Shown one piece after another: positions 6,933 through 39,185 of a stretch of DNA of 64,000 bases. Origin of the DNA: Antedon mediterranea (lineage: Eukaryota; Animalia; Echinodermata); contig NC_092675.1 of the NCBI RefSeq assembly GCF_964355755.1, positions 31,034,912 to 31,098,911 of the forward strand, in the 5' to 3' direction. The translations under genes were made by a program, and so were the position numbers. The notes beneath the pieces are model-generated. The model was not told the origin of the DNA. It saw only the letters and a program-made list of their open reading frames with translations, and made no database searches. How positions within the stretch are numbered: position 1 is the stretch's first letter; the number at the start of each line of letters is the position of its first letter.

Positions 6933-9343
6933 GGTGTCTGATCATTTCGGCCGCCAGTCATTTCGGCCGCCGGTTATGGAACGCCCAAAATCATGAAACG
7001 CCAAAAAAGACAAAATATGTATTATTCATTTCGGCCGCCAGAATCGTCAATATTGTTAATAACGTATGGCACGCCTTAATTGTCAAAAAGGGTGTATACA
7101 TGTGCCTATCGCCTGAATAGACGTGTGTAAATGGTGTCAATGAAATCGATCGCGTTTGAAATCGGTCGCGATAAAATAAACATCCGGTATTTTGTATGGA
7201 GCGCCACTAGATACGCTTTTTATCCTATTAGTTACATTTAAATATCGGTCGCGTTTTATTTTGGTCGCGCTAATTTGTATACGGCGCATTAGATACATTT
7301 TTAATGAAAACGTTCATTATGTTTTAGTTAATTTTGAATATTGGAATTTCTAATAATACTGTTTGACATTTTTTTAAACCTCGATCGTTATTTTTTAAGT
7401 ACAGTAAATATAAATATTTATCTCATTATTTATAAATAATTTGTGTTTCCATTTTATCTTACAGGTTTTAATGAATTGTAATGTGACTGTTCTTTTAGCA
7501 TGCCGTTGTTTAAGGTTTTGAAAATAAATAATAATCTAATAGTTAAAGCCCCATTCCCTACGTTTTTTAGATCTAATTTAAGATCACAAACTATATTTAA
7601 TGTAAAAATAATACTATATGGTCCTATTGCGATAACTTTTTTCGTCTTTAAACGGTTAAAAATGTGAAAAATAAATCGATTTTAATAATTATAGCGGCCC
7701 GCTATAAATCCCAAAATGCATTGCGCGCGGATTGATATTGTTGTTTTTCACCTGTAATTCGCCCACTTTTCGATCGATCGTGAAGCCAAAACAAATGGAA
7801 GACTCCTAACTTTTCAGCGAAAATACCGGGTTTCCCCCAATTTGTATCAACGGAGTCTGGCAAAAATAGAAAGATAATTAATGCAGCAACTATACAACGT
7901 CAGGCTAGGTATATAGCTAGCGTACGATGTTCGTACGTTACCGATGTTTACCAGCTAGGCCTACAAAACTAAGCCTAGCTAGGCTAGGCCTGAGACCGTC
8001 CACGAGAGGTCGATCGCCGCGAGCTACTTAGGTAGTGCATTGTTTCTCACTTTTTATCATAATTTACCATAAAACGTACATTTAAGACAAGGAAAGACAT
8101 GGTTTAATGTTTTTAAAGTGATATATATGTATTATTTTCCAAAAAACGTCCAAAATTGCAGGGAAGGGGTCTTTAAACAAGTAGCACAGTTAATTACGAA
8201 ACTCGTTCTATACCTGCAAGTGGATAGCTCAATGAGGTTTATGCAATAAAGGAATTTGATGCATGATAATGATTTTTGCATTCGATATCCGCCACTCTGA
8301 CGTGAGCATGGTTTAGGATAATAATAAAGTATATAGATAATATTCCGTTATAAATCAATCTACCAGCCCTACAGTAGGTCTATGATGTACAATGATGATA
8401 GATGTGAGAATAATGTATGGATAATAAAGGTGGATACGATTCTCAAAGAGGTACTGATATTTAAACATTTAGATTTACGAACGTCGTATGGATGTTATGT
8501 GAGACTACTTACTTAATTATTTACATTAAATGATTATTGTAAATAAAGAAATAAAAGATATTTTTCAAATTAAAATCTACACTATAGTATTTACGTACAG
8601 TATACGTAAATTATATACATCGTTTCACAAAAACATGTGCAGGAGGCCTATAGACGTTTTAAAAGTATGGTTGTTAGTAATAGACGTCATCTTTAGCTGG
8701 CCATGGACAACGATCGTACGTGTTTTGTCCATGATTTGACACACTAACAAGTGCGTGCTTTTTAAAAAGGGGAAACCCCGTCAGCAAAATAACTCATTGT
8801 TAGAGGAAACAGCTGCACGATCATAGAAGGCGCATCTCCAATATGACTTATTCGGGGGTTTATTTCAGTAACTCGCCTTTTAACCATCCGCATATAATGA
8901 TCATTTTTACTAACAACTATTTTTAATCACACAGCCGATTTATGACTTATGGGGGGATTAGTTTAGTAGTTTTAACTAAAGTATTTCTACACGACTTATT
9001 TTATTTCACAGTGGTTGTTGTGGGTGGGGGGTGGGGGGGGGGGGGCTGAGAGGTTGTAGGGCTCAGGAAGAAGCCGGCGAATGATAGTAAAATAGCGCAA
9101 CTCTATACAAATCAAAAAGTATGATCGTTTTTGTTGCTTGCTGTTTGAATACGCACGTCTATTCAGGCGATAGGCACATGTATACACCATTTTTTATAAT
9201 TGAGGCGTGCCATACATTAACAATATTGACGATTGTGGAGGCCGAAATGAACAATACATATTTTGTCCTTTTTGGCGTTTCATGATTTTAGGCGTTCCAT
9301 AACCGGCGGCCGAAATGACTGGCGGCCGATATGCACTGTGACC
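6933..9343. mobile_element. Non-autonomous DNA transposon, about 190-bp TIRs, GG..CC ends, 8-bp TSD gtgaatgt (Merlin/MULE-like)
   Basis: 6933-7120 is the inverted copy of about 9155-9343; gtgaatgt at 6925-6932 and 9344-9351. Confidence 0.85.
7547..8172. mobile_element. Kolobok-like non-autonomous element with TTAA target duplication, nested in the 6933-9343 element
   Basis: ttaa|agccccattccct..agggaaggggtct|ttaa; near-identical inverted copy at 21766-22391 and an internally deleted copy at about 13928-14236. Confidence 0.85.
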
Positions 9344-10046
9344 GTGAATGTACAGGTATATTTTAGCCCGAGAAACTCAAACGCATTCAATCACTCGTTT
9401 TAATCGTTGATGATTGAATGTTATTCCTTCTTTCTTTGAACATACATATTCTAATTGCTTTGTACATAAATAAAATAAGATATAACAGGAACTAGGCTAG
9501 GCCTACAGTAAATAAATTAGGCCTAGTTGTAATTTTTAGAAAAAAATCAAATAACAGTACAGTAATTGTAAATTGTAAATATAGATTTAATTAAGACAAT
9601 ATTTAGGCATGATGTTAATTTATTGTTTTTACATAAATAACAAACATATCTTGTTTAACAACATACAATTAAGCCAAAAAGTGTAATTTTAGCTGAAACC
9701 TTATTTCCCAATAATAATAATGATGATGTGCTGCGTCTCCACTAAAAAGAGTCATGTCATTGCTGTCATTTCTAGGACTCTCTCCTCTGTCCACGACAAC
9801 AGAGGCTGTACACTGTGGTAACTTCTTCATCTTAAGGTGAAGTTCTTTTACAAATTAAGTGTGTACATACAAAGAAGAATTGTTTTAACACCAGGACCAC
9901 AGAGCGAGTAAGCCTCAAATCCTTGCCGATAATTATGACTATGGATTAGTTTGCTAACTGCTTGGACACTCGCCCACACTCCCTCTCTCACTCATTCCCG
10001 AAACCTGTTTCTACTTATATTTTTGTATTTTCTAGATCTAGTGAAG

Positions 10047-13000
10047 ATGGCTGATTCTGCTTTTAACAAAGCTCTGGTTTGGTTGTCTCATGAAATATCA
10101 GAAGAAGATGAGCTTCACTGCTTACGGTTTATTACATCTTCTATTCTCAAGGCAAACTACTTTGACAGGCCTGCACAAGGAATATTTCATCTTTTAAAAC
10201 AAAATAAGTTAATTTCAGAGATGAAATGGTCTATTCTGTATGAGACATTAGGATTCATGGGACGTTTAGACTTACAAGTAGAATTCAGGAAAAGATTTGA
10301 CGGAAAAATACCAAAACAAAAATCGCCAGAGATATCCTCATTCACAAGAATGCTCATCGGTGTTTGTAAACATGTGTCCGTGTCTGCTGATGAATGGCAA
10401 AGTTTTATGTTTTTGTACCGACAAGAAGAAGGAGGTGCTAAAATTGATAGAGGATGTGTATATGCCTGCCTGCAATATCTCTTGGATAGAGATATTTTAA
10501 GAAATGACAAAAGTGCTTTAAACAAATTTAAACAAGTTCTGGAGACATCTCATCTTATACAAGCCAAGAAATGTGTGGAGCAGTACTGTAAGTTTAAATC
10601 TTTTGTAACATTAACACAACTATAAAGTAAAATATTGTTTGAAACTTGTCCCTGTGACCATCATTTTTTAAAGGATGCTATAGTCCATGAACAAGGATTA
10701 GATTTACTATGTAATGCCATTACACTTGAATTGAAGAATGTTCTGATGTGACTCTTGGAAGTCCTAGGTCCTTGTAATAACTGTCCCAACCACCACCACC
10801 TGCTTTTTTTCATAAAATGTTGTTAGGCAAGTTAAAATTAGTAAGGGCATGTATGTGGCAAAAACTTGTCTTGCTTTCCACAATATTATGGAACAATGAT
10901 GAAATATCGTTGCCAAGAGGATATGATTTCCACAGAACCCTTTAAATGTTAACCTTGTTATTACCAATATTAGTGGGACTACAAAAGCGTACTTTTTCTT
11001 TCACCTAGCCAGTTGTTCATTTGTTGTTATTAACTATCACACATGTATTTTCTTGATGATTACCACAGTGTATATTTTTATACATTTTTTAGTAAAAGAG
11101 AATAAAAGACTTCCAGAAAGAGAAATCACACCAAAACGTTCAAGGTACAGTATTTGCTACTTTTTTTTAATGAATATGTAAAAGCCATTCTAACATAAAT
11201 AAATTAATGATTGAAAAGATAAAAGGAAACCATCAAGTTACTATTTTCTGTGGTAGACTACCAATAGTTTGCCTTTAAAATACATTTCTAGAGTTATATT
11301 TATACATATTTTTATTGCCCTATTTTGTAATTTATAAAGTGAGATATTTTGCCTTATACAATTAGGCCTACACTTTTTTCATTAGTTGGCCTAAATGTTA
11401 GCAAGTGTGTTCATATTTTACACATATTATTTCACTTGAACAGTAGAACAATTGATTGTTAAGTAAGAAATTCTTACTAATCACTGATATAATGACATTT
11501 TGATACTAGAAAGTACTCTGGTGATATGTTATAATAGGTTGATTAAAGAAAAATCAAATGAAAAAAGCATTTTACACCTAGATTTCGAGAAACCCTGAGA
11601 CCTTCTCTAAGCTTTGTTTGTACACAAGCACATATGTTTTTATTTATTGACTTTATTTATTTATTTGGATTTACACCTTATTAGTAGTAGTAGTAGTAGT
11701 TATTAGTAGTACAAAGTTGCATGTGTGTGTCTATTATTGCTACAACATTTGTATATATTATTTTCTCTTCTAAACAATCAGCCCTATTATTGCTAAAGCA
11801 TCTGATGGACATGGTGATGATGGATCTTCTGCAAAGATTAATTCAGGTATAAAAATTTATATAAAAAGAAATAATTATGGGTGCAAAAATACAATCAGTT
11901 TCGATTGATAACCTAATAACTAAATTTCACGGCAAAACTGTACTACAACAAAGAGGCTTAGAATGATTAATTAAATTTTTAAAATAACCAAAACAAAACG
12001 CAAACAAAACCTACATAACTTATCTTAACAGAAAAAAATGATATGAATTGATGATGATATCATAACCAACTAAGAATAAATAAATGTTGTGATTTTATAT
12101 TTTGTGTAATTTGTTTGTGATGTTTAGTTGTGAGTGGGTTGTGTGTCGAATATGTGATTGATAATTCTTTTAATTTTCAGAATATAAGATTTCTGGGGAT
12201 CATAATATCATTGTAATTGGTTCATCAAGTGCGAATATAAAACAAGGTTACCATACTTTTTAAAATATTTTTTAAAATAATCAGTTATTAACATTTTTCA
12301 CTAAAGATATAATAATATTGAATAACGCAGCAATACTTATTTAATTTTTAGCTGGATTGGTTCCATCAGGTATCCACCCAATGTCTGGCCAACAGATAGG
12401 AACAAAGGAAGAAGAACTAATGAAGGACCAACAATCAATGGTTTCTGATCATCCTGAGGATAAAATGAACAAACACCAAACATCAGTAGCTGAAGGCCAA
12501 CCAATGCACCTCAAGTCAGAAATTGACGATCAAACTGACCAACAGGAAAAGGTGAATGAAGAAAGAGAACCCCGAGACTCAATGGACCAAGCAGGCACAG
12601 ACTTACAGTCACAATCACCAATGCACAGACAGGAGGGAATAAAAGGTCAAATGTCGGTAACAGACAACCAAGATAGTGGAATACAAAGGGATTTATCTAT
12701 AGGTTTGTCATCAACGTTTTTAATCATCTTTTTTAAAGACTTGGTTTGAATAAAATTGAATGTGTTATTGTTTTTTTGTGTCTCTTTTTAGTTAGGTTGA
12801 GGAACCCAGTTAGACAAGGCTCACCTTCTAGTTGTGATCCTTTAGCTGTTAAATTATTATTTATCATTTCTGTATTTCAAGTATGCTTAATACATTTTTT
12901 TTTTACAGTTTTCAATACAATAAATATCACATAATAATAATAAGAATTCTAACACTTTTCAGATTTTCCAAAATCATTGTCATCTTTCCCACCAACATCT

Positions 13001-16000
13001 CCAGAAGGTGCACGTAACCTTAAACCTACACCAGCAGCAGGTAAATTCATTTTTTTTTCTATTCATGATAATCATAATAATCAGCATAGTTTTCATAATT
13101 ATATTTGTTATTTGCTATATACCAATTTATATTTTAGTATTTTGGATTAAAATGTCACAATGTTAAATTTCATTTGTATTCCAACAAGGGAAATGGTGTG
13201 AAGACAAAAGGTGCTATTGTTTCAGTAAAGATGAAATAGCACAAATGAAGGAAGAGGAAAAGAAAATAGGAAAAGGTGGTTTTGGTACTGTCTACAAAGG
13301 TAATTTCTGATGAATTAGAATTTCTTTTGTTTGTTGTGGTAGGCCCTATGCTGTATGACGTCAAGCATGGAGGTATTCATGACGTCAAGTGTAGTAGTTT
13401 TGTGAAAAGACACAAATAAGGGTGAATATAACATCAGTTTGTATAATGTTCCACAGGCTGAATATATTTAGATTTTACTCAACATTCAGAGTCAATGTTC
13501 TTTCATTGTAATACTATTTAAAGATGGTAAAAAGTAATTAATAATGTTTACCTTTCTAGGACGTTTGACACTACCTTCTGGGCAAGAAACTACAGTAGCT
13601 ATTAAAGAATACTCTGAAGACATAGCTAAATTTACAGGACAAGGGGACATACAATTTGAAAAAGTATGATAAAAATTATAACTTTTAGAGGAAGATGAAT
13701 CTTCCTGGTAATGGGAGAATTATTAGAAAAATAAGGCTTTTGATTTTTAATACAGAATTTTATTCAATTTCGAACAAATTCAGAAAACAATTACACAAAC
13801 AAATTTTAGTTCTAATCTAATTTATTTTAGGAATTATACGCTGTAGATATATCAAAGCATTGTTTTGCAGTGACAGTTATTGGGTACTGTCTTGATGGAA
13901 AGTAAGTAATTTGCATTTAATATTTAAAGACCCCTTTATTACGTTTTGTAAAAATAATGCATATATATTACTTTAAAAACATTAAACCAGATCATTCCTT
14001 GGCTTAAATTTTTATGGTAAATCGATTGAAAGTGTGTGAATTACAGGATAAAACCAAAAATGCATGTTGGGATTTATAGCGGGCCGCTAAAAGATTAGAA
14101 TCAACTTATTTTTCACATTTTTAAACGTTTAAAGACGAAAAAAGTTATCTCAATAGGACCATATAGTATTTATTTTTACATTAAATGTAGTTTGTGACCT
14201 TAAATTAGATCTAAAAAAACGTAGGGAAGGGGTCTTTCAAGAGTAATACATTATTTTAACATATTTTCTATTAATTTTCTTTATTTTGAATTAGTAATTA
14301 CTTCATGTTTGCCTCTGTTGTTCAAATAAATAAATAAATTTCTATAAATGCTAAAAAATCTATATGTTTATAATTTGAATAAAATACCCTGTACCCTGTT
14401 TTATGGCTATTCATTTCTTTCATAATACCATGTAATTTTAATGTTTACACACATTTATTTTTCTTTCTTTAGATACAAAGCACTTGTTTACCCATATATG
14501 GAGAAAGGAGATTTAAAAAGGCTCATTGATGATCGTAACCCTGCCTTGACATGGCGAGTCAGACTGTGTATTCTACATCAGATCTGTCGTGCCATGTGTC
14601 ATTTTCACAACTCTTTCAAAAAAAGAAATGGGTAAGTATACAGTCAACTCTCCTAATACCGGACACCTTTGTCTGGTATTGGGAATGTGTTTTTAATGGT
14701 AGAAATGAATTGGTATTGGGAGATTTGACTGTATTAAAAAAAAAATGTTAAACATTCACTAAAGAAAAAATTATTTAGTGAATACTCAAATTATTATTAT
14801 TATTATTTATTTTAATATATCCACAAATCACAGAAAACAAACTGAATTGCTTGGGATTTACATAACACAATAAAAATTGCACACATCAATATACACATAT
14901 AAAGACAAAAACAAATTTACCAATTAGATATCAAAAATATATGGTTGAAGAATTATTTTTAAATTACTAATTATAAAAATTATACTAATGTTTAAATGTA
15001 TGTATTTTTATATTTATATATTTGCAGCCAAGATGTTATACATGGAGATATTAAAGATGACAATATATTTGTTGACAACAATTTTAATGCTTTCTTGGGA
15101 GATTTTGGTGTAGCAGAAGAAATAGCAGAAGAGCATACACACATTACAAGAATACAGGATGCATGTGCTCTTGGTTACAAAGACCCAGACAACATTGGGC
15201 ATTTTACTCGATTATCTGATATCTTTCAGTTTGGAGTCTGTAAGTTTTTAAATTTTAGCTATTATAAATAGTATATTCCTGTATGGCATGGCAGCAATGA
15301 TAGGTTTGTATATTTGTTCTTGCAGTAATGTTTCGCTGCCTTACAAGTAAACCTGTCCACCAGAAAGATGAAGGTTCAGAGTGTGAATCTTTAGCATCTT
15401 TGAAAGAGACACATGTAAAAGAAAATTGTGACGAGCTTTGTAACTTCATAGATAAAGTATGTGGGATGTTTAATAATAATAATAACATTTGTTTCCACAA
15501 ATTATAGAGCAACATACAGAGTAACAATATAAATATACAACCAATAATTAGTATTAATACTGTACATCAACAAAATAACTTATGTTCATGAATATTGATA
15601 TTCGTCAATTTTTATTTCATCTGTAGCAGATTTGTGTTTGTTGATGATTAAATAAATGATAATTTTTAAAGTCCAATTAAAGGTAGACTGTCTTTTATCC
15701 TTATTTTCTCTCATCTTTACAATGGAAAGTTTTTTGTGTTTTTGGAAATTGCTATATTTATAGCAAAAATGGTACGTTCTCTTATTATATCCATTGTTTA
15801 CTTTTCAGGAAATCTGGAAAGGCAAAGATGATATAGCAAAAGAACTTGCATGCTTTGTGGTTGAAAGATGTTTGGTCAGAAAAAGGTCTGGAAAGAAGAG
15901 ATGCTCTTTTGAAGACATATTTACATTGCTAGATGTAAGTAAGAACATTGAAAATAAAACAAGCCTTACCTGTATAATGAAGTTTGATTACCATATCAGC

Positions 16001-16639
16001 ATTGGCACTTCAGGGTTAGAGGGAGAGGCAAGCCTGTAACCAAGATTAGCCACGACTACCCTTTCAATACATTTTCAAACTTTGATTGATGTTTATAACA
16101 GTAATAATAGGAAAATATTTTTAAAATATCAACATTTTGTAAATTATTTAAAAGATCCAAGCCTTTATACTAGGAAGCCTGTTTAGTAGTAAACTACTGT
16201 TCTCCCACAGTGCTCAGTATAACATATAACAAAAGCAAAAGCCTCCTGTATACACATCCTTTGTGATCCTACTACCTTTTAAGATTCTATGATTTCAGGT
16301 TGTTGTGTCAAACTGTAGTTTCTCTTAATGTTTTGTTTCCTTTCAGAAACACATGAAGAAAGAGGACATTCCACCATTTTCAAACCCTGATGATACAATG
16401 TGCGTTTGCTGCCGAATACAGAAACCCATTGATTGTGAGCAATTTTGTTTATTATATTTTTATGTGTTCATCTTGTAACATTTCACAATTAGATTTTGTT
16501 GTTTTGTTCAAGAAGGATACTTTGAGCTGAACTCTTTTTTTAATCTTTAGTTGACCCTAACTGTGGTTGCCACTTCAGATGTCCAGAATGTCTTCACAAC
16601 AGCAGCCTGTCTTGCCCATGTACAGCTGAAAACCAGTAG
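10047..16639 (+). CDS. Tandem-DED / RHIM-like / IRAK(Pelle)-type non-RD Ser/Thr kinase / RING-like protein
   Basis: GT-AG exons joining in frame: 10047-10587 (two DEDs; GRLDL, SFMFL), 11093-11144, 11782-11846, 12181-12246 (YKISGDHNIIVIGSSSANI), 12352-12702, 12963-13040, 13189-13299 (IGKGGFGTVYKG), 13560-13663 (VAIK), 13831-13901, 14473-14631 (LVYPYMEKGDL), 15028-15239 (HGDIKDDN, DFG, GYKDPD, SDIFQFGV), 15326-15456, 15809-15934, 16347-16434 (CVCC), 16551-16639 (CGCHFRCPEC..CPC, TAG). Confidence 0.85.
13928..14236. mobile_element. Internally deleted Kolobok-like element in a kinase intron
   Basis: Both ends match the 21766-22391 element. Confidence 0.7.
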
Positions 16640-17904
16640 ATACTCCATGATGGAACTGATGTTCAAATTGGGTATTTTTTTGTAAATATAAGTATACTTA
16701 AAATAACCACTCAGTATTCTCCCAAACGGTGGCTCCCAACTGGATTTTAAAATGGTGTAAGATAATAAAACTATTCTACTTCATTTTACAAGGATTAAAT
16801 ACCAATCAGCCTATGCTGTGTCAATTTGATTGATAGAGATATTTTAGTCTTTTTGTACTGTACATCTTAAATATTGTAACTGTACTTATATTGTCTAAAT
16901 TTGGGAAATGCTGCTATTGTACTGTAATATCTGAAAATATATAAAATAGCTCACTATTGAAGAGCTTATTATTTGTGACAAATACTATATAAAAATTAAA
17001 TTTTGTAAATCCTGTAGTGTATTTCACCATTATACTACAGTAGTGTATGTAAAATTAGTCAATTTACTCGGTAAAAGATAATCTTACAAAAATCAATGAA
17101 AAGAATCGAATAAAGATTATTTGACAGATCTTGATCTATATATAAAATAGATTGTACAAATCACATTTTAATTAATTCCTGCAGTCAATTATTATGTAAA
17201 GGGTTTTTTTTAAACAATCAACATTCCATACTAGAATTGGATTTAATGTGTCAATAGCCAAATGAGGCTGTGTTACTGATAAAATTTAATCGGTAATTAA
17301 ACGATAAAGTTCATGTGGAAACAGTTTATAACCATTAATTATCTCATTCGAATTTAACAGATAATTATCTCATTCAAATCAGATAGTTTATACAATAACT
17401 AAAATACATTTTAACCTTTGACCTGAAGGACAATTGCTGTAATTGATCATGAACATTTGACTTATCTGATTTATTAAAAGATTAACCAATAATGTTTTAA
17501 TGGCTTTATAAACAAAGATAATACAGTAATATTGATTTATACATTGATTGTACTTATTTATTTATTTTTATTTTATTTTATTTTATTTTATGTCTTTAAA
17601 TTATTTTGTATTAATATTTGTCCTCAGTGAGGAAATTCGGATTAGGCCCTCCACGGACCCACGGCAGCCAGCAGTGCAGCGCCTACCAGATTAGGCAATG
17701 AGAGTAAAGCATCTTGCCTAAGGATGCAATTAGTATGATAACCTCGAACCCATGCCTATCACATGCTAGTCCGATATTACCATTACACCATCACTCTCCA
17801 GTATATACAGCACCCGCCACGATTTCTAGATGGTCTCCCATCCAGAACGCAACCGGGCCAATCACTGTCCTATCAGATAGGTGGTAATCCCCCTGATACA
17901 GAGG

Positions 17905-20249: not shown

Positions 20250-23200
20250 ATGAAGAAGATGATGATGTTATTACCATTCCAAGTCGTTTTTGTAACAACC
20301 ATTCTGATTGGTTACTTAACAAGTCATTGCAAAGGTAACCCTTTTATTTTTTAAACATTATTTTTAAAATGTTTAATCCGTATCTTATAATAGAATGTTA
20401 GTATAGATGTTTTTAGCTGTGAATATTACCACATCATTTCATTTATGATGTCTATTTATGCATAATAAGAAATAAGCAATGAAAGGAAACACATAACATG
20501 TGTGTTTGTTCATTTTGAATTCATAATGGTACAGGGTAACAATAAAGCTCTGTCTACACTATCAAACTTTATGTGAAAAAAAAAAATGTGTCCATGTATA
20601 TAAACATGATGATGTCATATCACTACCATATTTGGGCACATCACAATAAAAAGAAACACATACTGTAGCAAAAAGAAAATGTGTGTTTGTTCATTTTTTA
20701 TCAATGATTATGGTACAGGTAATAACAACTATAAACAGTGAATATGACAATAAAAAAAACAAAGCCCAATAAAACAAAATTGTGTTCTTAACTTAATTTT
20801 AAGTAATTGAATATGTGCACTAATATAATAACAACAGATATTATTTTTTAAAGAGTTAACAAAGATAATTATTCAAGTTGGCTATCTAGCTCATTCCAAA
20901 GTTTGTGAAATCAATGATGATATCAGAGGGCTTGTAGTACATGATGAAATATGGTTGAAAAACAACCGACACAACAGAATTGTGAAATTTAACCACTTTG
21001 AGAAATAAAAATAGTAAAATATGCGTCGTAATGGAGCCAAATGTGATTGAAAACTCGTAATATAGCAAGCACCGTCTTGAAATCATTGTTATTCACCAAA
21101 TGATGCTAATTGCAATCAATCACATCATGGTAATATTGTCTGATGATGAAGACGATTTTTAATTCAACCACCGTTGTTCAGACTAAATATTCACACAGAA
21201 TATACTTACAGAATCATGCTGTTGGATGTAGTTGAAATTAACAGAGCCTAATAAATAATATAAGTGAGATTGTTTTCTTCTTTTTTATTCTTGTGTATTT
21301 AATTAATGAAGATATGAATGGTGTTATCAATGTGATTCTAAGAAGGTTGTATAGACCATTCTAGGTTGGTAGTGTTATGCATTGTAAATAGGAATATTTA
21401 CTAAGCCAAATACTGTATTGTTTATACATTAAATACCAAACAAATTGAATAATATTTAAAGCTGACTAGTTCATAATGCATTATTTCATTTAATTTTAGG
21501 GCATTTTCATAATTCTATTTTTTATTTTGTTTGTTTTTATTTTTTTTATCCTCACATCATGTCATACAGTACATAAGGAAATCAAATATAAACATATATA
21601 AATATGAAAGAACACAGATTGTTAATTTTAGGGGTAGCGTATCTAAACAGTTAACTTGTAATACAGGTGCACCACAGGGATGCGTTCTCTCACCCTTACT
21701 TTTTTCATTATTTTATATTCTGATTTTTATAGTGATATTGATCCAAGTAAATCATTTAATGTTAAAGACCCCTTCCCTGCAATTTTGGACGTTTTTTGGA
21801 AAATAATACATATATATCACTTTAAAAACATTAAACCATGTCATTCCTTGTCTTAAATGTACGTTTTATGGTAAATTATGATAAAAAGTGAGAAACAATG
21901 CACTACCTAAGTAGCTCGCGGCGATCGACCTCTCGTGGACGGTCTTAGGCCTAGCCTAGCTAGGCTTAGTTTTGTAGGCCTAGCTGGTAAACATCGGTAA
22001 CGTACGAACATCGTACGCGAGCTATATACCTAGCCTGACGTTTTATAGTTGCTGCATTAATTGTCTTTCTATTTTTGCCAGACTCCGTTGATACAAATTG
22101 GGGAAAACCCGGTATTTTCGCTGAAAAGTTAGGAGTCTTCCATTTGTTTTGGCCTCACGATCGATCGAAAAGTGGGCGAATTACAGGTGAAAAACAAAAA
22201 TATCAATCCGCGCGCAATGCATTTTGGGATTTATAGCGGGCCGCTATAATTATTAGAATCGACTTATTTTTCACATTTTTAACCGTTTAAAGACCAAAAA
22301 AGTTATCGCAATAGGACCATATAGTATTATTTTTACATTAAATATAGTTTGTGATCTTAAATTAGATCTAAAAAACGTAGGGAATGGGGCTTTAAGTTTG
22401 CAGATGATACTTGCCTAGTTGGTTTAATTTCAAATAATAATACATCCCTGTTTAATGAATATGTTGAACAATTTGTAGTCTGGTGTAAACAAAATTTTCT
22501 TGAACTAAATGCCAAAAAAACTAAAGAGGTTATTGTCGATTTTAGAAGGAAAAATAAAACTAATCATGTAAATATTGAAATAGATAATGAAATCGTTGAA
22601 ATAGTAGAAAGTCATAAGTACTAGGGATTAATAATTGATAATAAACTAAATTGGGAGAGCAACACTAAAGAACTCCGTACCAAGGCTTATAAGAGAATGT
22701 ACTTTATATACAAAATGAAACGGTTTAATGTTAGTTCTCATCTCATTCATATGTTTTATTCCTCTGTTGTTCAATCAATCATTTCTTATTGTATTATTGT
22801 TTGGTTTTCTCATATCAATGTAAACAGTAAAAGTCAAATTCAGAGATTAGTAAACAAGGCCAGCAGAGTTATCGGTGTAGAAGTGAAACCTTTAGATGAA
22901 ATGTTTAATACATTCATACTTCAGAAATTTGACCACAATTATGCAAGACCCATCACACCCATTACATTCGGACATCATTATAAGTAGATCAGGAAGGGTT
23001 AGACTGACACAGAAAAAAATATCCACAAACAGTTTCAGATTTTCACCAATGTACATTTTAACAAAAACTTTTCAAGATAGTCACTTGTATCATTTGTATT
23101 TATTTATATAGTTATCACATCGTATTATTTATTCTACTCCGGTACAAAACATCTCGAAATTGTTAACAATTTTGACAATAAAGTTATCTTGTATCTTGTA

Positions 23201-26200: not shown

Positions 26201-29200
26201 TCTCTATTGACAAGTTTGACCTTCTGCTATATACATTAAATCTTAACTTTATATCCTGAAAATGTGTAGTTCTCATGAAACCAAACCACCAAGAAACATT
26301 AGATTACAATCTAATCATATCAGCCTCTAAGCCACCTGTCTTAAAGACCATATTTTGAATCTCGTGCACTTTCTGTAGCATCATGTGTAATTTTCTTGTA
26401 GAGAATGCGACTGAATTGCACGCAGTAGCAATTATCAAGAAAAACACAACAAGGTACTTCTTTTGCTCTGCAAGCTCAAACGGCAAGGGCTGGTTAAAAG
26501 ATGGTACAGAGGTGGACGATTCATTACAATCGTTTGAAGGTGATTATAGGATTCTGACGTTTACTGCCACCATGTTTAGTGATTCTGGACATTACACATG
26601 TGGTGACACATCGATCAATATCACTGTAGCAGGTACGTTTAATGTGTTGATATTAATGCCCAATCACTGTACACTAGCAAGTTTAATGTGCTGATAGTAG
26701 CATATTGTCAATATGACTGTCATTGTAGCAAACAAGTTTAATGTGCTGATAGTAACATATTGTCAATATGACTGTCATTGTAGCAAGTAGGTTTAATGTG
26801 CTGATACTAGTAGCACATTGTCAATATAACTGTCATTGTAGCAAACAAGTTTAATGTGCTGATAGTAGCATATTGTCAATATGACTGTCATTGTAGCAAG
26901 CAAGTTTAATGTGCTGATAGTAACATATTGTCAATATGACTGTCATTGTAGTAAGTAAGTTTAATGTGCTGATAGTAACATTGTCAATATGACTGTCATT
27001 GTAGCAAGGAGGTTTAATGTGCTGATAGTAGCATATTGTCAATATTACTGTCATTGTAGCAAGTAAGTTAAATGTGCTGATAGTAGCATATTGTCAATAT
27101 GACTGTCATTGTAGCAATTAAGTTTAATGTGCTGATAGTAGCATATTGTCAATATTACTGTCATTGTAGCAAGTAAGTTAAATGTGCTGATAGTAGCATA
27201 TTGTCAATATGACTGTCATTGTAGCAAGTAAGTTTAATGTGCTGATAGTAGCATATTGTCAATATGACTGTCATTGTAGCAAGTAAGTTTAATGTGCTGA
27301 TAGTAACATATTGTCAATATGACTGTCATTGTAGCAATTAAGTTTAATGTGCTGATAGTAGCATATTGTCAATATGACTGTCATTGTAGCAAGTAAGTTT
27401 AATGTGCTGATAGTAGCATATTGTCAATATGACTGTCATTGTAGCAAGTAAGTTTAATGTGCTGATAGTAACATATTGTCAATATGACTGTCATTGTAGC
27501 AATTAAGTTTAATGTGCTGATAGTAGCATATTGTCAATATTACTGTCATTGTAGCAAGTAAGTTAAATGGGCTGATAGTAACATATTGTCAATATGACTG
27601 TCATTGTAGCAATTAAGTTTAATGTGCTGATAGTAGCATATTGTCAATATGACTGTCATTGTAGCAAGTAAGTTTAATGTGCTGATAGTAACATATTGTC
27701 AATATGACTGTCATTGTAGCAATTAAGTTTAATGTGCTGATAGTAGCATATTGTCAATATGACTGTCATTGTAGCAAGCAAGTTTAATGTGCTGATAGTA
27801 GCATATTGTCAATATGACTGTCATTGTAGCAAGTAAGTTTAATGTGCTGATAGTAACATATTGTCAATATGACTGTCATTGTAGCAAGTAGGTTTAATGT
27901 GCTGATAGTAACATATTGTCAATATGACTGTCATTGTAGCAAGTAGGTTTAATGTGCTGATAGTAACATATTGTCAATATGACTGTCATTGTAGCAAGTA
28001 GGTTTAATGTGCTGATAGTAACACATTGTCAATATAACTGTCATTGTAGCAAGTAAGTTCAATGTGCTGATAGTAACATATTGTCAATATGACTGTCATT
28101 GTAGCAAGCAAGTTTAATGTGCTGATAGTAACACATTGTCAATATGACTGTCATTGTAGCAAGTAGGTTTAATGTGCTGATAGTAACACAGTGTCAATAT
28201 AACTGTCATTGTAGCAAGTAAGTTTAATGTGCTGATAGTAACATATTGTCAATATGACTGTCATTGTAGCAAGGAGGTTTAATGTGCTGATAGTAGCATA
28301 TTGTCAATATGACTGTCATTGTAGCAAGTAAGTTTAATGTGCTGATAGTAACATATTGTCAATATGACTGTCATTGTAGCAGGTAAGTTTAATGTGCTGA
28401 TAGTAACATATTGTCAATATGACTGTCATTGTAGCAAGTAAGTTTAATGTGCTGATTGATAGTAACATATTGTCAATATGACTGTTATTGTAGCAGGTAC
28501 ATTTAATGTGCTGATAGTAACACATTGTCAACATGACTGTCATTGTAGCAAGTAAGTTTAATGTGCTGATAGTAACACATTGTCAATATGACTTTAGCAG
28601 GTACGTTTAATGTGCTGATAGTGATACTAACTAATACTTAACAGTACTAGCAAGTTGAGCTTTTGTTTTCATTACTCGTCACTCAACTACAGTATGCAAA
28701 ATAAAGCCACTCTGCACATGCTCAGAATGACTTTTACTCTACAGCTGCATACCTTCTTGTATCTAGTCCAAAGAATTAAAATGTTTATAGATTGGAATCT
28801 GCACTATTTTGTATTAAAATACAAATTCAACTCTCTCAATACCAGACTTTATGTAAATCAGAAACTCTCCAAATCAGACTTTTTCTTTTACCATTAAGAT
28901 CACATTCAGACTACCAGCCTTTGTGGCTCAGCAGCCTAAGTTGACTGTAATTGTAATAGTTGTTCGATTCTCAAAGCAATCGTTTCATTTTAAGAAATCA
29001 ATTAAATTGTTCATTAACTAACAATTTAAATGTATTGCTGTACATATTGTTCTTTAAGAATTACCAGTTTTAGATGTTACCTGTTATTCATATGCTCCTA
29101 AAGAAAACTACTGTAGTTTGTCACTAGTTTCTTCAACAAACTTGCCAACACAATATGAATGTAGTTATAGTCGAAGCAAGTAAGTTTACCATCAGTTTAA

Positions 29201-32200
29201 TTCTAATATTAATATAAGAACCATTTCTGATTTGGTCACTTTGGTCAGTGATGTTAATCAATAACATTATTTATAGTCTGACCAAAAACATCCAAATAAT
29301 ACATTCATGTTTTCTTCCCCAGGAATGTGACCTATGACATTTAATTCCTTATATACCTGTTAAGTTAAAGTTAAAATTGACTTTGATGTACACTGTGTAT
29401 TATAAAAAAGATTGTTTATTTATAAGATGAAATTATTATTTTTCTTTCAGTGGTAATGGTAAAGCAACATCTGCAACATTGACTAATAGTGACATTAGTC
29501 CTATCTGCAATTTCTCAGGTGCTATAGACATTACTTATAATGTTTATGTTACAAGTCACAATGTCCTGGGTAGTACTACTACAACATTAAAACTAGAGTT
29601 TGAAAATTCACGTAAGTAATACATTGTTCTGATCAAGCATCAATAAGGCGTCATGTCCAAATGTTTCCAAACGTACAAACCGCGTCAAACGGTCACCGTT
29701 GATAGCTTGATCGTTTAACGCGTGCAACGATCGTAAAAGAGCTAATTAATTTATGCATTTAGTATTGTACCGCCCACTGTAATTGTTTAGCCGTTAGCGT
29801 TAAACGTCGTTTGTTTTAAAATGTCTATGTGTCATCGCCTTTAGAAGCATGGACAATACACACAAACAATGTATTGTTCGCTATTTAAAATCCTATTTAA
29901 AGACGTCAATTTTTGTAGCCGCCCTACGCATCAGTTTTCCTAATTTGGCCGGAAACATCAGCCGACGAGACGACATCGGGCCCGTGGACCTCAGCTCACA
30001 CAGAGAAAGTTCAGCCTAGCCTAGTTTCGGCGGCCTACACTATAAATTATTTAATCGTACCTTGGGTTAGCGAATTATAAAAACGACACCTAGGCTAGGA
30101 CACAAACAAAATATATACAAAATAAATATATATTCCATGTTAAGATTTACCAGTCATAGGCCTTTTAAATGATTAATATATTGTGTAAAGAAAAAGGCCC
30201 GACCAGAATTTGGAGTGGGAAAAACCATGGAAAAACATGCGAGTGGATCGGAGTCTGGGAACAGTTTAGATATAAATAGAGGAAATTCAGGTACACAATC
30301 TTAAAATTACTGTTTTCAGCATCCACCACCCTCTAATCAGGGAGTTGTAAAATATAATTTTACAACTCCCTGCTCTAATGGACGGCCGGCCGTACTGAGT
30401 TAAAAAATATCATGTTAGAGGTTGAGGTAAAACATCGAGTAGTATCGCGTTTCATGCCAAAAAAACCAGGTCTGTATTAATTACGGTCTTCTCTGTCGGC
30501 AATCTTTTTGAGCGACTTGAACGTTTTGATACCATATTTAGAATGAATGTTTTACCATCTTTTTTGTGGGCATCGTTTCTGGATCGACGGATGTTCGATC
30601 GCGAAGATCGCATCCACAATGGATTAACGCGATCTTTTTTTTACAGTATACAGTTAGGCCTATTTACTTGTACTTTTCAAATGTGCAAAAGTTTTATGTC
30701 ACAAAAGTGTCTGGTTTTACAGTATTATATTATGCTAGTAAATTCTAACGACGACAAAGCTCAAAAGCCTTCACATTCCTTGTTTAATAAGTATAATAAT
30801 AATTATTATTGGAAAAATAGCCAATGATTTATATATTTATTTTCAAGAATATTTTACGAAGCTGATCATTAGGGACCCTCACAAAATTACAATGACGAGA
30901 CATATATAACAATAAAAATTAAATTAAAATAAATCAAATTTATAAAGATAAACAAAATAAAATAAAGCACAAAAATAGAATCAAACATTAAATGAATTCA
31001 ATTAATGATCAGTCATCTTTTCAACGATCTAAATAAGATTACCGACCGACAGAATTTGAAGTAAAAACATATGAGCGCTGTGAACAGGAGGAGAAAGAGG
31101 ATATCGCGTGACCAACATCTAGGTACTTGTTTACCTTTTTATGTTATCGGCCTGCAATCTATGGGCGCGCGAACACCGACGGTCGGCCGAGCATTCACTG
31201 CTGCTATTTTTAGAAGACCTTTTTTTTTTATCGATTGGATACTAAAACTGTAGACGTTCGCTAATGCATTTAGAAGTGAGATGTGAATAGTTCACCTGTG
31301 GCGTGGCACATCGTTTTGCTATTGTCTCAGGTGCTTAGTTCATCGTATGAACTTCCTAATGATATTTTCAGTCGGCTATGTAAAAGAAAGCAACTAAAAA
31401 ACATTCCAGGCCCCTGTTTATTATTAATATTAAATTATTTATTGAGGTTACGAACTTATAAACATTTTAGAATGATGTTTGAGATCGGCACCCCTGGAAT
31501 ACAATTCAGCTACAAACTCTCTTAATTAAAAGGCAAACTGAAACGGGAATTATTTGGGCCTGTTTGTGATGACTCATCGTTAAACGACGTTCACGAAGTG
31601 ATTCGCAACGACGTTCACGAAGCGATTCGCAACGACGTTAAATGATTCGTAAAAATCAGTCAAGCATGTTAGTGGGCGGAACTATTACAAGCTATGCATA
31701 TTGTCCATTTTCCAAACGGTGTGACGATTTTAGAATTTTCACGCTAACGCTAAAACAAAAGAAAACGCGATTAACGAGCTTTGTCAGTTTGAAAACATTT
31801 GGACATGACGCCTAACAGCAATATTTTTTGATTAAATTTTCAATTTAATTCAAATATTCATAAATAGAAATTAATGAGTTTATTAATTATAGTTATTAAA
31901 CATTTTTTAATTTCTGATACTTCAAAATAAATTAAACAATATTTGAATTGAACTAAAATTTTCCCAGAAACAATCAGATTTTGGTTTATAGATCATTGCA
32001 GCCAAGTTTGGGTAAAAAAACGAATTATAATTCTGAATATCACTTTCAGGTTTGGTAACAAAGTAACTCTTGAGTAGTTAGTTGTTTTTTATTTCGGTTT
32101 TTGTCAAAATTATCAGTTGTATTTAGTTTTAAGGTTAATTTGTTTCATGGTTTTTCTCAAGCACTTTGAGCACTTCTGTGGATATGTCCGCTGTATAAAT

Positions 32201-35200
32201 CTTATTATTATTATTAGTTTTCTTGTTTATGCTAAATGTTGATTGATATCAAAATTCAGAAATTTTAAACAAATTGATTTAAAATGAAATTAATGTGATA
32301 ATGTGTTGCTGATTTATTTTAGGAATTCCTCACACTCCTACAAAGTTGATGCTAACCGAGCCCAAGACTGACCCATTAAGTAGTACTAAAAAATTGAAAA
32401 TAAGTTGGAATCTTCCTAAAGGCTATGATAACAACACGGCTCATTTCTTACAATACAAAGTTCGCTTCAAGGCAGGCAGTGTCAGTTGGAATAAATCACA
32501 AGAGGTATATTAATTAAATTATTATTATTGGTTTTTATAGAATGTTAATCTATGTCATTAAAACAAATTAATTTCCAGGATCCATGAATTACTACAGTGT
32601 GTTCCTTGGTACTTTCTGGACTTGACTACTGCAATCCTTCATTACACTTGATCATGTGAAGCACTCAGTAACCATGCACTTGAATAGGCAAACAATGTTT
32701 GTTTTATATTATAACATTTAAACACACCTACATACTGTTGTTCTAAAGTAAACTTGTATTCCATTTGTTCTTACCATCTTCCAATTTTGCAGAAGGCTAT
32801 GGCAGAACTTGAGTTTTGGATTGGGTACAGAACACTCTAGTTGTCAAGTTGTGATGTCATCTATTGACAAATAGAATATATTATATTATTGAATAATATA
32901 ATTTGACTGTCAATGCTTAAAAATAGTAGATTTAGACTTGATCATGTGATACCATTCAACCAATCACTAGACAGTAAATTTTGCACTAGGATATAATTAT
33001 TGTTTAAGCTATTATTGTTTCTTACCATTTTATGATGAAACTGTAAATTTGTTTTACTCAATTGGTTTCTCATTGTTTTCTTTAGTTAAAGAAGGTAATA
33101 GGTGATCGATTTCAAGACATTCCAAATTTGGATCATTACACAACTTATTATGCACAAGTTAAAGCAGCAACGTCAGCTTATGATGTATATAGTGATTGGT
33201 CTATGATTGTAAATTGCACTACATCAGAAGGAAGTAAGAAAAATAACCATTTTTGTAATAGTGAAAAATGTGTATGTACAAATTAGAATAAGGATCTTTA
33301 ATAAGCATAACTTAATGCCATTTATAGTTTACATTTACTGCACAAAAAAAATAAATGTTGATGCCCGGTGTGTGCCAAGTTTGTACATTTTGAAAAACTA
33401 AATTCAGACATATGTGTCCGATGTAGTGTTTGTTCTGTGTAAAGCTTTATGAAATAAATATCCATTCCAAACACCTTGATTCATATTATTATTTAGAACC
33501 AGAAAATCCGGTTAAAATGGACTATACGCAGAAACTGACAGATAATGGAAGAGACATCACTATCCTCTGGGAGGTATGCTATTGCTCCAATTTTGTAAGA
33601 CAAATTGATGACTGCTAATAGCTCCAGTTACCAGCATTGTAGTTTATGCATATAGATATGGAATGATAATACTATTAAAAACAATGTATAAAGCTGTCTA
33701 CACTATCAAACTAGTTTAACAAAAAAAGTGTGATGTACCCAAATATGGTAGTGATATGCCAAAATATGGTAGTGATATGCCCAAATATGGTAGTGATATG
33801 CCCAAATATGGTAGTGATATGACATGTCCATATATGGGCACATCACATTTTGTTGTCACATAAAGTTTGATAGTGTAAACAGAGTTCAACTTTATCATTT
33901 ACTGTACAAATTTATTTATGATAAAAGTTGAGTGGAGTTTGGTGATAAAGATGCTTGCCTATTGGTACCAGAGTCCAGAGTTTAAATTCTTTCAGAACAG
34001 ACTTTGTTTTAAGTAGAACATAGCATAGTTTATATTTATCCTGTGAACAGGGTTGAGATTTGCTACATTTATTTGTGTTATAAAAGTGATATAATAATTG
34101 AATTAAATTACCTAGAACCCTTATATTATTATTTAGTTATGAATCTTGTACTGTGGAATTGAATTTCACATTTTTCAACAATTTGTATAATTGTGCGTAA
34201 GCCTGATAAATAACAAAGGATATGTTTATAGCCTTTAGATGAAAAAGGTGCAAACGGAAAAATTGTAGCTTATTATTTAAGCCTTGGCAATGAACTGCAT
34301 CATGTACTAGAATCCAACATATTACCAGCTGAAAGAACTAACTTTACATTTAAAGGTAATTAAATTGCTGTAAAGCTCTGTCTACAGTATCAAACTAGTT
34401 TGACAATAAAAAGGGGTAGTGATATTCCCAAATATGGTAGTGATATGACATCATCATGTCCATATATGAGCACATCACATTTTGTTTGATAGTGTAGACT
34501 GAGCTTTAGTTTAAAGCCATGATAGGACTTGAGGAGTAATCTCGAGATGCACACTGTCAAGATGCCTATATTCAGTTTTAAGCTCCTCTCCCTTATTCTA
34601 CTATTTTAAAATATCTATGTAAGTTTGTTTATCACTGGTTTTTAGTAGTACTGTAATTTTGTTTAGCAACAGCTTTTAACAAATAAATTGTTTTTTATGT
34701 TTTATTAAGATTTGGAGAAGAACAAGGCGTATTATGCAAATATCACAGCCGCTAATTCAGTTGCAAATTCAACTACAACTACACTATTTATTAAGGCTGA
34801 ACCGTACTCAAATGGTAAGTATTACAGAAGAAAAGAAACGTGCTTCTCAAATTTAAATGAAAACTGTAAAAAGTGATTTTGGAATAAATTTTGAGTTAGA
34901 CAGAAATATGTTGATTAATGTTTTCTATAAACTTTTTCCACAATGACCTTAATCTCAATCCTTGGGTCATTGTCTTTTATGTCACACTGCTACTGTTATT
35001 ATTTTCTAACTTTCTTAGAGGCTGTGATTTTAGTTGTTATCATTGGCTTAGTGATTATCATAGTAGCTGCAATTGCCTTTTTATGCTGGAATAAACTTGT
35101 GAAAGCTGACTGTATGCAGCCATTGCCTGAACCAAACTTCCTAGACCTTGCGTTATACACAGTAAGCACATTTGTATTATCACAACAACAAGCACACATT

Positions 35201-38352: not shown

Positions 38353-39185
38353 AAAGAATTTCATTTAGCTTCGATTTTGTATAGATGACAAATTTCGTTT
38401 TTGTAAAAGCACAAGTTAACGGAGTACTTACTCGAACGTTTCGATCTCTATCAGAGATCCTTCTCAACTGACTGCGGAGTGTTAATGCAGCTTGGTCATT
38501 CTTGACGTCATCTGTTGATGACGTTGTACGCCTCCGGTTGTAGGTTGGAGGTTGGTTTCCTACCCCAAAATAAAATCAAGAATAGCCTCGTCCACCCAAA
38601 AGATAAAATCGAGAAGATGGATACATGTGGAGTAATCTACGAAGTCACCTGCCGCAACTGTCCACAAGTTTACATTGGGGAAACAGGGAGGGCATTACAA
38701 ACACGAATTAATGATCACAAAAAAGATGTTACAACAAACACGGGGGGAGTAATGACTAGGGCCTCCAGAACATCCACATCTTCGATCATACACAAATCTG
38801 CCATTACAGAACATGTCATAAAACACAATCATGTACCGAACTGGGAGGCTACCATCTTAACCAAAGAGCCTAAACGCAAAGACAGACAGATTAGAGAATC
38901 ATTACATATAAGGAGAAATAAAGAGAAGACCATGAACCGGGACACTGGAGCCCACGAACTCTCGCATTTGTACAATGATTTGATAGACACATCACCTGGC
39001 CGAGCCCCGCACAACCTCCAACCTACAACCGGAGGCGTACAACGTCATCAACAGATGACGTCAAGAATGACCAAGCTGCATTAACACTCCGCAGTCAGTT
39101 GAGAAGGATCTCTGATAGAGATCGAAACGTTCGAGTAAGTACTCCGTTAACTTGTGCTTTTACAAAAACGAAATTTGTCATCTAT
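38353..39185 (+). mobile_element. 5'-truncated Penelope-like retroelement: GIY-YIG endonuclease flanked by inverted pseudo-LTRs
   Basis: ORF 38515-39084 has GVIYEVTC..C.QVYIGETGR.L..R..DH, SAITEH, R..RESLHI, MNRD.G. Perfect 174-bp inverted repeats at 38381-38554 and 39012-39185; target duplication (t)ggaaaaatcaag at 38340-38352 and 39185-39197. Confidence 0.92.

Follow-up and report, generated by a model that had tools for sequence, protein, structure and literature searches.

A crinoid gene predicted to join a tandem DED head, a RHIM-like motif, an IRAK/Pelle-type kinase and a RING-like tail in one protein

Gene structure and transcript evidence

The DNA analysed here (the window) is a stretch of 64,000 nucleotides from the crinoid Antedon mediterranea (contig NC_092675.1, positions 31,034,912 to 31,098,911 of the forward strand), with a GC content of 27-41% per 2-kb block. 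Its plus strand carries a gene predicted to encode, in this order, a tandem DED head, a RHIM-like motif, a protein kinase and a RING-like tail. The coding region was rebuilt from the sequence, from an ATG at 10047 to a stop codon ending at 16639, and comprises 15 exons separated by introns that are GT-AG throughout and have compatible phases, yielding a protein of 747 residues without internal stop. An earlier note, made from the letters of this DNA, had given the same coordinates, the same exon count and a single open reading frame, all of which the rebuild reproduced. The landmarks that it listed, namely RLDL (residues 73-76), ISSFTRML, SFMFL, IVIG (230-233), a polar linker, kinase motifs and a Cys/His cluster, were each located.

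Five sequencing runs, none of them annotated as RNA, cover this stretch, and the contigs of two of them, called here X1 and X2, were compared with the window. X1 is RNA according to a software guess and carries 0.27 of the sampled words, a value near the exon share. In X1 contigs, 12 of the 14 predicted introns were seen directly among the 15 of 46 joints listed; one of the 12 was offset by one base with the same length, and the remaining three of the 15 lie within a repeat in intron 9. Contigs of X2 read through the introns, and none of the 12 X1 intron joints was found there. A single X2 contig (9315-13968) extends from the DED exon through kinase exon 9, X2 being possibly the source of the assembly and not independent of the window. 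Compared to the window, X1 shows nine listed coding differences (six changing an amino acid and three silent, C708 being among them) and a 6-letter gap in exon 5. Since X1 comes from a different study and carries these coding differences, it likely represents another individual, in which the frame is intact.

Introns 4 and 5 are absent from the listed joints and were deduced from record coordinates and bin depth. Record 2 of X1 (1160 letters, depth 30) holds exons 1-5, and record 3 (2046 letters, depth 64) begins at 13014 within exon 6 and reaches 17541. Arithmetic on the record numbers reproduces the 2046 letters of record 3 without remainder and puts exon 5 exactly where it lies in record 2 (764); it leaves 50 letters of record 2, whose end would then fall in exon 6, at about 13012. 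For the bin over 12731-13017, the depth computed without any read-through end was 6.37, compared to 6.36 seen. By this reckoning, a single base at a CpG cytosine would separate the contig with the DED from that with the kinase, as a single-base variant in a graph assembly would leave them.

The alternative is that the locus yields two products. One would comprise DED and motif and stop around exon 5 or 6, the other would be a kinase-RING protein with a start of its own, and the full fusion would be rare or absent. Two observations speak for two products and weigh against one transcript: no X1 contig spans both the DED and the kinase exons, and the depth steps from 30 to 64 between the two contigs. 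That X1 counts as RNA only by the guess also weighs against the reading as one protein. Two products would also agree with an AATAAA within intron 5 and with the gene model of P0002, a related protein of the crinoid Anneissia japonica described below, which ends at about the end of exon 6 (36/2000 shuffles, weak). However, both contigs reach into exon 6 by arithmetic and end side by side at the CpG cytosine, the splice between exons 6 and 7 was seen in X1, and the depth between the contigs needs no read-through end. We consider two products very improbable, and the DED and kinase exons with high probability lie on one mRNA. The single transcript claimed earlier thus holds as regards the introns, whereas a contig bridging the DED and kinase exons was not found among those of X1.

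An extra 39-nt exon at 12792-12830 is frame-compatible and was disfavoured. With its 11-letter tail left unplaced, the computed depth is 5.21 and the depth seen 6.36, an argument that lapses if the tail is placed. X1 depth in two bins over 13018-13591 was 33.7 and 19.7, above the share of record 3, for which repeat-derived or intron-retaining contigs may account. An unspliced X1 contig lies over 9613-9975 (depth 8.7), and record 2 opens with 30 unplaced letters before 10036, which hints at a 5' untranslated exon upstream.

The tandem DED head and its crinoid relatives

Pfam matched DED in exon 1 over residues 6-77 (E 1.8e-5, under the curated cut-off), and the caspase-8 prodomain aligned over residues 13-137 with an E value of 1e-4 for the single sequence and 4e-5 for a three-sequence profile. 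The top three Atlas clusters (0.90-0.92) are all DED proteins, two of them of tandem length and the first mostly echinoderm. Predicted structures of the head, of low confidence (predicted local distance difference test, pLDDT, 53 and 55), show a helix pattern compatible with two six-helix bundles. Foldseek ranks 1-12 are caspase-8/cFLIP DED entries (best E 3.6e-3, about 20% identity), and structural re-alignment placed 17 tandem-DED entries on top (Z 3.5-4.4). For the second repeat, a Pfam DED match under the cut-off was obtained in P0002, at residues 97-151. In DEDs, an F-L hydrophobic pair and an RxDL motif have known roles, the F122-L123 pair of caspase-8 taking part in filament contacts; F28-I29, RLDL and F122-L123 are present here, and the caspase-8 pair falls on the profile column pair that holds F122-L123 of the window protein.

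These scores are weak (Pfam under the cut-off, no Foldseek match at E 0.001, Z at most 4.4), and together with an Atlas recognition value of 2159, below the guide of 2300, they count against a DED head. A wide fold search returned no DED among the top 50 listed (best Z 6.4, unrelated helical bundles), a negative that carries little weight because the model has a pLDDT of 55. Four kinds of search, Pfam, caspase-8 alignment, Atlas and Foldseek, are individually weak but concordant, and residues 1-180 likely form a divergent tandem DED, which agrees with the caspase-8/cFLIP-like N-terminus first proposed. No death domain was matched in any piece scanned with Pfam, exon 1 matching DED and not Death, and no caspase or pseudo-caspase domain was found after the linker, where the exons encode the kinase. 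A PPR (pentatricopeptide repeat) identity, suggested by the top 4 of 17 matches for exon 1, was discarded as a sum of weak repeat matches, no segment being significant alone.

When 1.84 billion representatives were scanned in full with HMMER, three matches emerged: two proteins of Anneissia japonica, with 37-38% identity in the tandem DED, and a plant PPR protein (P0003), discarded as summed weak repeat matches. A profile search, in which 3 of 7994 candidates were scored, added only a longer Anneissia isoform. The relatives are encoded by LOC117101058 (P0002) and LOC117112909 (P0001 and P0004) and are all annotated as 'uncharacterized'. P0002 combines the head with the motif and a Gln-rich linker. 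Its gene model, located on a contig of 60 kb, is possibly truncated. P0001 and P0004 carry the head, a repeat linker and about five predicted membrane helices, and the motif is absent from them. They also match Bax inhibitor-1 weakly (E 0.0025-0.0037, under the cut-off), and a protein of this build might be a membrane-anchored DED nucleator or decoy.

None of the three gene models of the relatives contains a kinase domain, which counts against the four-part protein. As their tails differ too, the head appears to be a crinoid module joined to various tails, and the fusion is so far known from this gene alone. Only crinoid relatives turned up, all in Anneissia japonica, and the lineage-specific protein put forward at the outset is consistent with these searches. 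No paralog was detected by tblastn inside the 64-kb window, and none of 264 pattern matches was confirmed in a metagenome scan. Word-based homolog searches gave 0/343 candidates for exon 1 and 0/16 for exon 11, blanks that are weak because the exon 1 search missed the known Anneissia relatives too.

The RHIM-like motif of exon 4

The window protein and P0002 share the pattern Y-x-I-x-G-x-x-N-[IL]-I-V-I-G with the same spacing. Among 14 exons compared with the post-DED part of P0002, exon 4 was the sole one to pass the 1% level (score 55, 0/2000 shuffles), and it did not match P0001 or P0004 in the shuffle test. Of the 42 exon-versus-relative shuffle tests in total, one further pass was obtained, exon 3 against P0004 (7/2000).

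In mammals, the core of the RHIM reads (V/I)-Q-(V/I/L/C)-G (PMC12119088; bioRxiv 10.64898/2026.02.19.706818). The core tetrad is I-V-I-G in both crinoid copies, with V where the canonical RHIM has Q, which argues against a RHIM. Nucleation by RIPK1 requires Y531, I533, I539 and I541, and that by RIPK3 is reportedly increased by insertions ahead of the second strand (bioRxiv 10.64898/2026.02.19.706818). Positions Y221, I223, I229 and V231 fit RHIM positions 0, +2, +8 and +10, the Gly standing at +12 and not +11. A RHIM is a motif of 18-22 residues with unstructured flanks (bioRxiv 10.64898/2026.02.19.706818; PMC4262963); here 73-75% of the residues flanking the motif are disorder-promoting, as are 73% of those in the linker of residues 242-385. 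Neither the Pfam RHIM model nor solved PDB RHIM chains matched a 21-residue query, nor was the Pfam RHIM model matched by P0002, short queries having low power. A Q-to-I RHIM variant was reportedly described for amphioxus RIP1 and was given no weight.

On sequence grounds, exon 4 encodes a selectively conserved peptide that is RHIM-like and at most a putative RHIM. The RHIM-like motif of the earlier note therefore stands by its conservation in P0002 and its aliphatic spacing, but not by the strict RHIM consensus.

The kinase domain

Exon 11 matched Pfam Pkinase (E 2.2e-9), and 47 of its 49 PDB matches are plant receptor-like/Pelle-type kinases or IRAK4, the two others being GCN2. With exon 10, IRAK3 came first in the PDB (E 0.013, 19.2 bits), with FERONIA and RIPK2 (18.5 bits) within one bit, and exon 7 queried alone gave one weak match, to EGFR (E 0.52); the assignment of kinase type is thus based on individual exons. 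The catalytic loop is of the non-RD type (HGD), and Y486, at the gatekeeper position, stands opposite a Tyr in the alignments to IRAK3 and FERONIA. A Tyr gatekeeper and a non-RD state with G for R are hallmarks of IRAK1/Pelle (PMC3498205). The Gly loop (residues 412-417), K437, E457, D540, K542, N545, DFG (558-560), the subdomain IX Asp and R678 are kept. In the P+1 loop, C579-A580 stand opposite the G-T of two aligned kinases, which could lower the activity and weighs against a working enzyme. Since the catalytic residues are kept but C-A replaces G-T, kinase activity is likely, not certain. The domain is thus likely a non-RD kinase of the receptor-like kinase (RLK)/Pelle/IRAK type, predicted to be catalytically competent, and the IRAK-like kinase of the first description is borne out by the exon 10 and 11 matches, the gatekeeper and the HGD loop.

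These features would suit a Pelle/IRAK1-type kinase of the Toll pathway that acquired a DED head by exon shuffling, the kinase and tail doing the main work while head and motif localise the protein. The junction between head module and kinase lies at phase-1 introns, consistent with shuffling. Against this, IRAKs are recruited through a death domain (PMC11874512), the domain for which the Pfam scans gave no match, and the 747-residue model contains no TRAF6-type PxExx(aromatic/acidic) site; the missing site also counts against the mechanism put forward in the Discussion. We regard a Toll-pathway kinase as rather improbable.

The protein might instead substitute for the necrosome, with the head on death-receptor filaments, the motif polymerising and the kinase phosphorylating an MLKL-like pore former, in replacement of RIPK1 and RIPK3. 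Echinoderms possess MLKL, sometimes duplicated, and are reported to be missing the RHIM-bearing RIPK1 and RIPK3 (PMC11932488; PMC12119088; PMC11507063), and the exon 4 motif is conserved in P0002. However, the top kinase matches are of Pelle/IRAK type rather than RIPK3, and sea-cucumber MLKL is reportedly activated through cleavage by caspase, not by phosphorylation (PMC11932488), which makes a role in necroptosis less likely. A necrosome substitute is accordingly quite improbable, a shade more so than the Toll-pathway kinase, and the link to apoptosis and necroptosis that was proposed at first is weakened in its necroptosis part.

The RING-like tail

The final 48 residues contain nine Cys and two His, spaced C-x2-C-x11-C-x2-H-x2-C-x2-C-x7-C-x1-C. 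The RING consensus is C-x2-C-x(9-39)-C-x(1-3)-H-x(2-3)-C-x2-C-x(4-48)-C-x2-C, so that seven tail intervals fit RING or are free while the last pair is one residue too short. A relaxed RING pattern was met in 29 of 100000 shuffles. Two points tell against a RING here: the last pair breaks the strict spacing, and the choice of the relaxed pattern was made post hoc with the sequence already known. Pfam gave no RING match for exon 14 or 15 scanned singly, an intron dividing the cluster. The tail may fairly be called RING-like and its ligase activity is a guess; the RING-like domain of the earlier note is thus upheld in its Cys/His cluster and not in its spacing.

A further possibility is a cFLIP-like decoy, in which the head caps or dilutes caspase-8 filaments, a weak or inactive kinase serves as scaffold only and the tail marks partners for turnover. 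Consistent with a decoy, the caspase domain is absent, the P+1 G-T is replaced, the kinase is divergent (the empty word-based search with exon 11) and the relatives retain the head with other tails, including the five-helix membrane tail. In addition, four of the five codon differences listed for X1 in kinase and tail (the Cys pair region excluded) change the amino acid or are neutral, few differences that point to no strong constraint. However, the catalytic set from the Gly loop to R678 is intact, including the catalytic Asp, which is lost in pseudokinase IRAKs (PMC3498205). We find a decoy unlikely, though less so than the Toll-pathway and necrosome alternatives.

Exon coordinates and neighbouring features

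Table 1. Exons of the gene in the window, the parts of the protein they are predicted to encode, and the support for each.
Feature	Position	Strand	Support
Exon 1, tandem DED, residues 1-180 (DED1 F28-I29, RLDL 73-76; DED2 F122-L123)	10047..10587	+	Pfam, caspase-8 alignment, Atlas, Foldseek
Exon 2, polar linker, residues 181-198	11093..11144	+	GT-AG, phase; X1 joints on both sides
Exon 3, polar linker, residues 198-220	11782..11846	+	GT-AG, phase; X1 joints
Exon 4, RHIM-like motif, residues 221-233; 66 nt, symmetric phase 1-1	12181..12246	+	Conservation in P0002
Exon 5, Gln/Asp/Glu/Ser-rich linker, residues 242-359, predicted disordered	12352..12702	+	Shares X1 contig with exon 1; 6-letter X1 gap
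Exon 6, Pro/Ser-rich linker, residues 359-385	12963..13040	+	Joint 13038-13187, 25 letters on exon 6 side; contig arithmetic
Exon 7, kinase start, glycine loop, residues 412-417	13189..13299	+	GT-AG, phase, X1 joints
Exon 8, beta-3 lysine K437, start of helix C	13560..13663	+	GT-AG, phase, X1 joints
Exon 9, helix C glutamate E457, subsequent strands	13831..13901	+	GT-AG, phase, X1 joints
Exon 10, Y486 at the gatekeeper position (Tyr), with the hinge and helices D and E	14473..14631	+	PDB match IRAK3; Pfam kinase E 1.1e-4
Exon 11, HGD loop (D540, K542, N545), DFG 558-560, activation segment, subdomain IX	15028..15239	+	Pfam Pkinase, PDB
Exon 12, kinase C-lobe	15326..15456	+	GT-AG, phase, X1 joints
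Exon 13, kinase C-lobe, subdomain XI arginine R678	15809..15934	+	GT-AG, phase, X1 joints
Exon 14, first RING-like Cys pair C708, C711	16347..16434	+	X1 joints, translation
Exon 15, coding part, C723, H726, C729, C732, C740, C742, stop	16551..16639	+	X1 joints, translation
3' untranslated region, reaching at least 17541	16640..17541	+	X1 record 3 continuous over 16551-17541

The repeat in intron 9 (13879-14452) is of very high copy number, with a summed X2 contig depth above 28000, and a stretch near 7550-7770 is apparently related to it, as judged by eye. A kB-like near-palindromic site at 8770-8779, 1.3 kb 5' of the ATG, was rejected, its count not being above chance (18/100 shuffles).

Further along the plus strand, 10 kb past the DED-kinase gene, comes a likely gene of the cytokine-receptor type (26359-36883). 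One of its exons matches an Ig domain (Pfam Ig_3, E 2.6e-4), and another, of 425 codons, is polar and contains several tyrosines. After its transmembrane exon, located near 35020-35160, there is a Pro-x-Pro stretch, which we take to resemble a Box1 motif. The minus strand carries sulfotransferase exons at 791-2766 (Pfam Sulfotransfer_1, E 2.7e-9 and 2.1e-6) and a TRAPP component exon at 45864-46070 (Pfam TRAPP, E 1.1e-9). Two retroelement remnants lie on the plus strand, one at 21513-22984 with a reverse-transcriptase fragment and an ALKBH8_N-type match downstream, the other at 38506-39081 with a GIY-YIG endonuclease frame.

Discussion

These results make it highly probable that the gene encodes one protein with the domain order tandem DED, RHIM-like motif, kinase and RING-like tail. 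The order first claimed is thereby retained, with a RHIM-like motif that is conserved, a kinase of IRAK/Pelle type and a RING-like cluster, most likely on one transcript. The product is likely a cytosolic multi-domain protein that would be recruited to DED filaments. By analogy, it might be a kinase-ligase scaffold turned on by clustering on these filaments, similar to RIPK1 or RIPK2 plus an IAP in one chain, a mechanism that we hold tentatively, at slightly less than an even chance.

According to such a mechanism, an upstream DED protein, which might be an NLR with a DED or FADD acting behind a death receptor, would nucleate a filament, and the head would enter it through the F122-L123 patch. 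The RHIM-like peptide, lying in a disordered linker, would then offer a second, amyloid-like stacking surface. Clustering would allow the non-RD kinase to phosphorylate its neighbours in trans, and the RING-like tail would decorate the complex with chains of ubiquitin. With no caspase domain of its own, the protein would occupy places in the filament without cleavage, so that the output would be directed toward immune signalling of the NF-kB type and caspase-8 would be held in check. Tandem DEDs build filaments and mixed assemblies of FADD, caspase-8 and cFLIP (PMC11874512); FADD and caspase-8 are present in echinoderms (PMC13673367), and the sea urchin has DED-NACHT proteins (PMC2575513).

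More broadly, the gene could encode a single-chain ripoptosome of independent origin in crinoids, in which DED-filament polymerisation and a non-canonical RHIM-type amyloid are joined to a kinase and a ligase, the parts played in vertebrates by RIPK1/RIPK3 and cIAP. In the crinoid family to which it would belong, the tandem-DED head would stay constant while the tail is exchanged, being either kinase-RING or a membrane anchor, and the protein would replace the RHIM-bearing RIP kinases missing in echinoderms. We regard this wider proposal as doubtful.

To our knowledge, the death-fold kinases described so far have either a CARD, as in RIPK2, or a death domain, as in IRAK, Pelle and RIPK1. If a kinase is linked directly to a tandem DED, caspase-8-type filaments would be coupled to phosphorylation and ubiquitination without an adaptor. 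The gene is thus a concrete candidate for the choice between death and immunity in echinoderms, which have FADD, caspase-8 and MLKL and reportedly no RHIM RIP kinase, and its conserved I-V-I-G probes the flexibility of the RHIM sequence rule. Caution is required, as domain shuffling is frequent in invertebrate immune genes and the protein is possibly a narrow lineage product.

The earlier note did not recognise this domain order. Our literature searches returned no description of a DED-kinase fusion, subscription surveys of sea urchin and amphioxus immune genes and InterPro architectures being outside their scope. In the available parts of PMC8195603, PMC11463336, PMC2246300 and PMC5668880 nothing on such a fusion was found (the figures or supplements of PMC8195603 may list some), and DED had no match in 12 of the 16 supplementary files of PMC3499355. 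Likewise, no DED-kinase or DED-RHIM-kinase-RING protein was found in what was available of PMC2575513 and PMC4262963, although the figures or supplements of the latter may list some. The chance that some invertebrate DED-plus-kinase gene model is already catalogued is about even, and a previous description of the full four-part order is very improbable.

The protein shares with IRAK1/Pelle a death-fold head, a long polar linker and a non-RD kinase with a Tyr gatekeeper, and differs from them in having a tandem DED for the death domain, a RHIM-like exon, a RING-like tail and an altered P+1 loop, and no TRAF6-type site. With the prodomains of caspase-8, cFLIP and vFLIP it has in common a tandem DED spanning exon 1, the F-L pair of DED2 and the RLDL of DED1; the similarity is remote (about 20% identity) and a kinase takes the place of the caspase or pseudo-caspase domain. 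Death fold, kinase and ubiquitination also come together in the complexes of RIPK1 (kinase-RHIM-death domain) and RIPK2 (kinase-CARD) with IAP-type RING ligases, which act alongside RIPK2, and RIPK1 likewise has an amyloid-like motif. For RIPK1, the role of an IAP-type ligase is documented in PMC4262963. In the window protein, by contrast, the kinase is C-terminal and of Pelle/IRAK type, a DED serves as death fold, the tetrad reads I-V-I-G, and a ligase-like domain is part of the same chain. RIPK1 and RIPK3 have an N-terminal kinase followed by the RHIM, plus a death domain in RIPK1 (PMC12119088), an architecture that the order DED, motif, kinase does not share. Going by the architectures that define these families, the predicted protein falls outside IRAK, RIPK and caspase-8/cFLIP. 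Its closest relatives, encoded by LOC117101058 and LOC117112909 of Anneissia, share the divergent tandem DED, and P0002 also the motif and the Gln-rich linker, whereas their models are without a kinase and P0001 and P0004 are without the motif and end in membrane helices. Invertebrate deuterostomes offer a parallel for a lineage-specific fusion of death folds or RHIMs with new effectors, in the shuffled 'direct connector' proteins of immunity known from amphioxus and sea urchin (PMC2575513) and in invertebrate RHIM proteins (PMC4262963).

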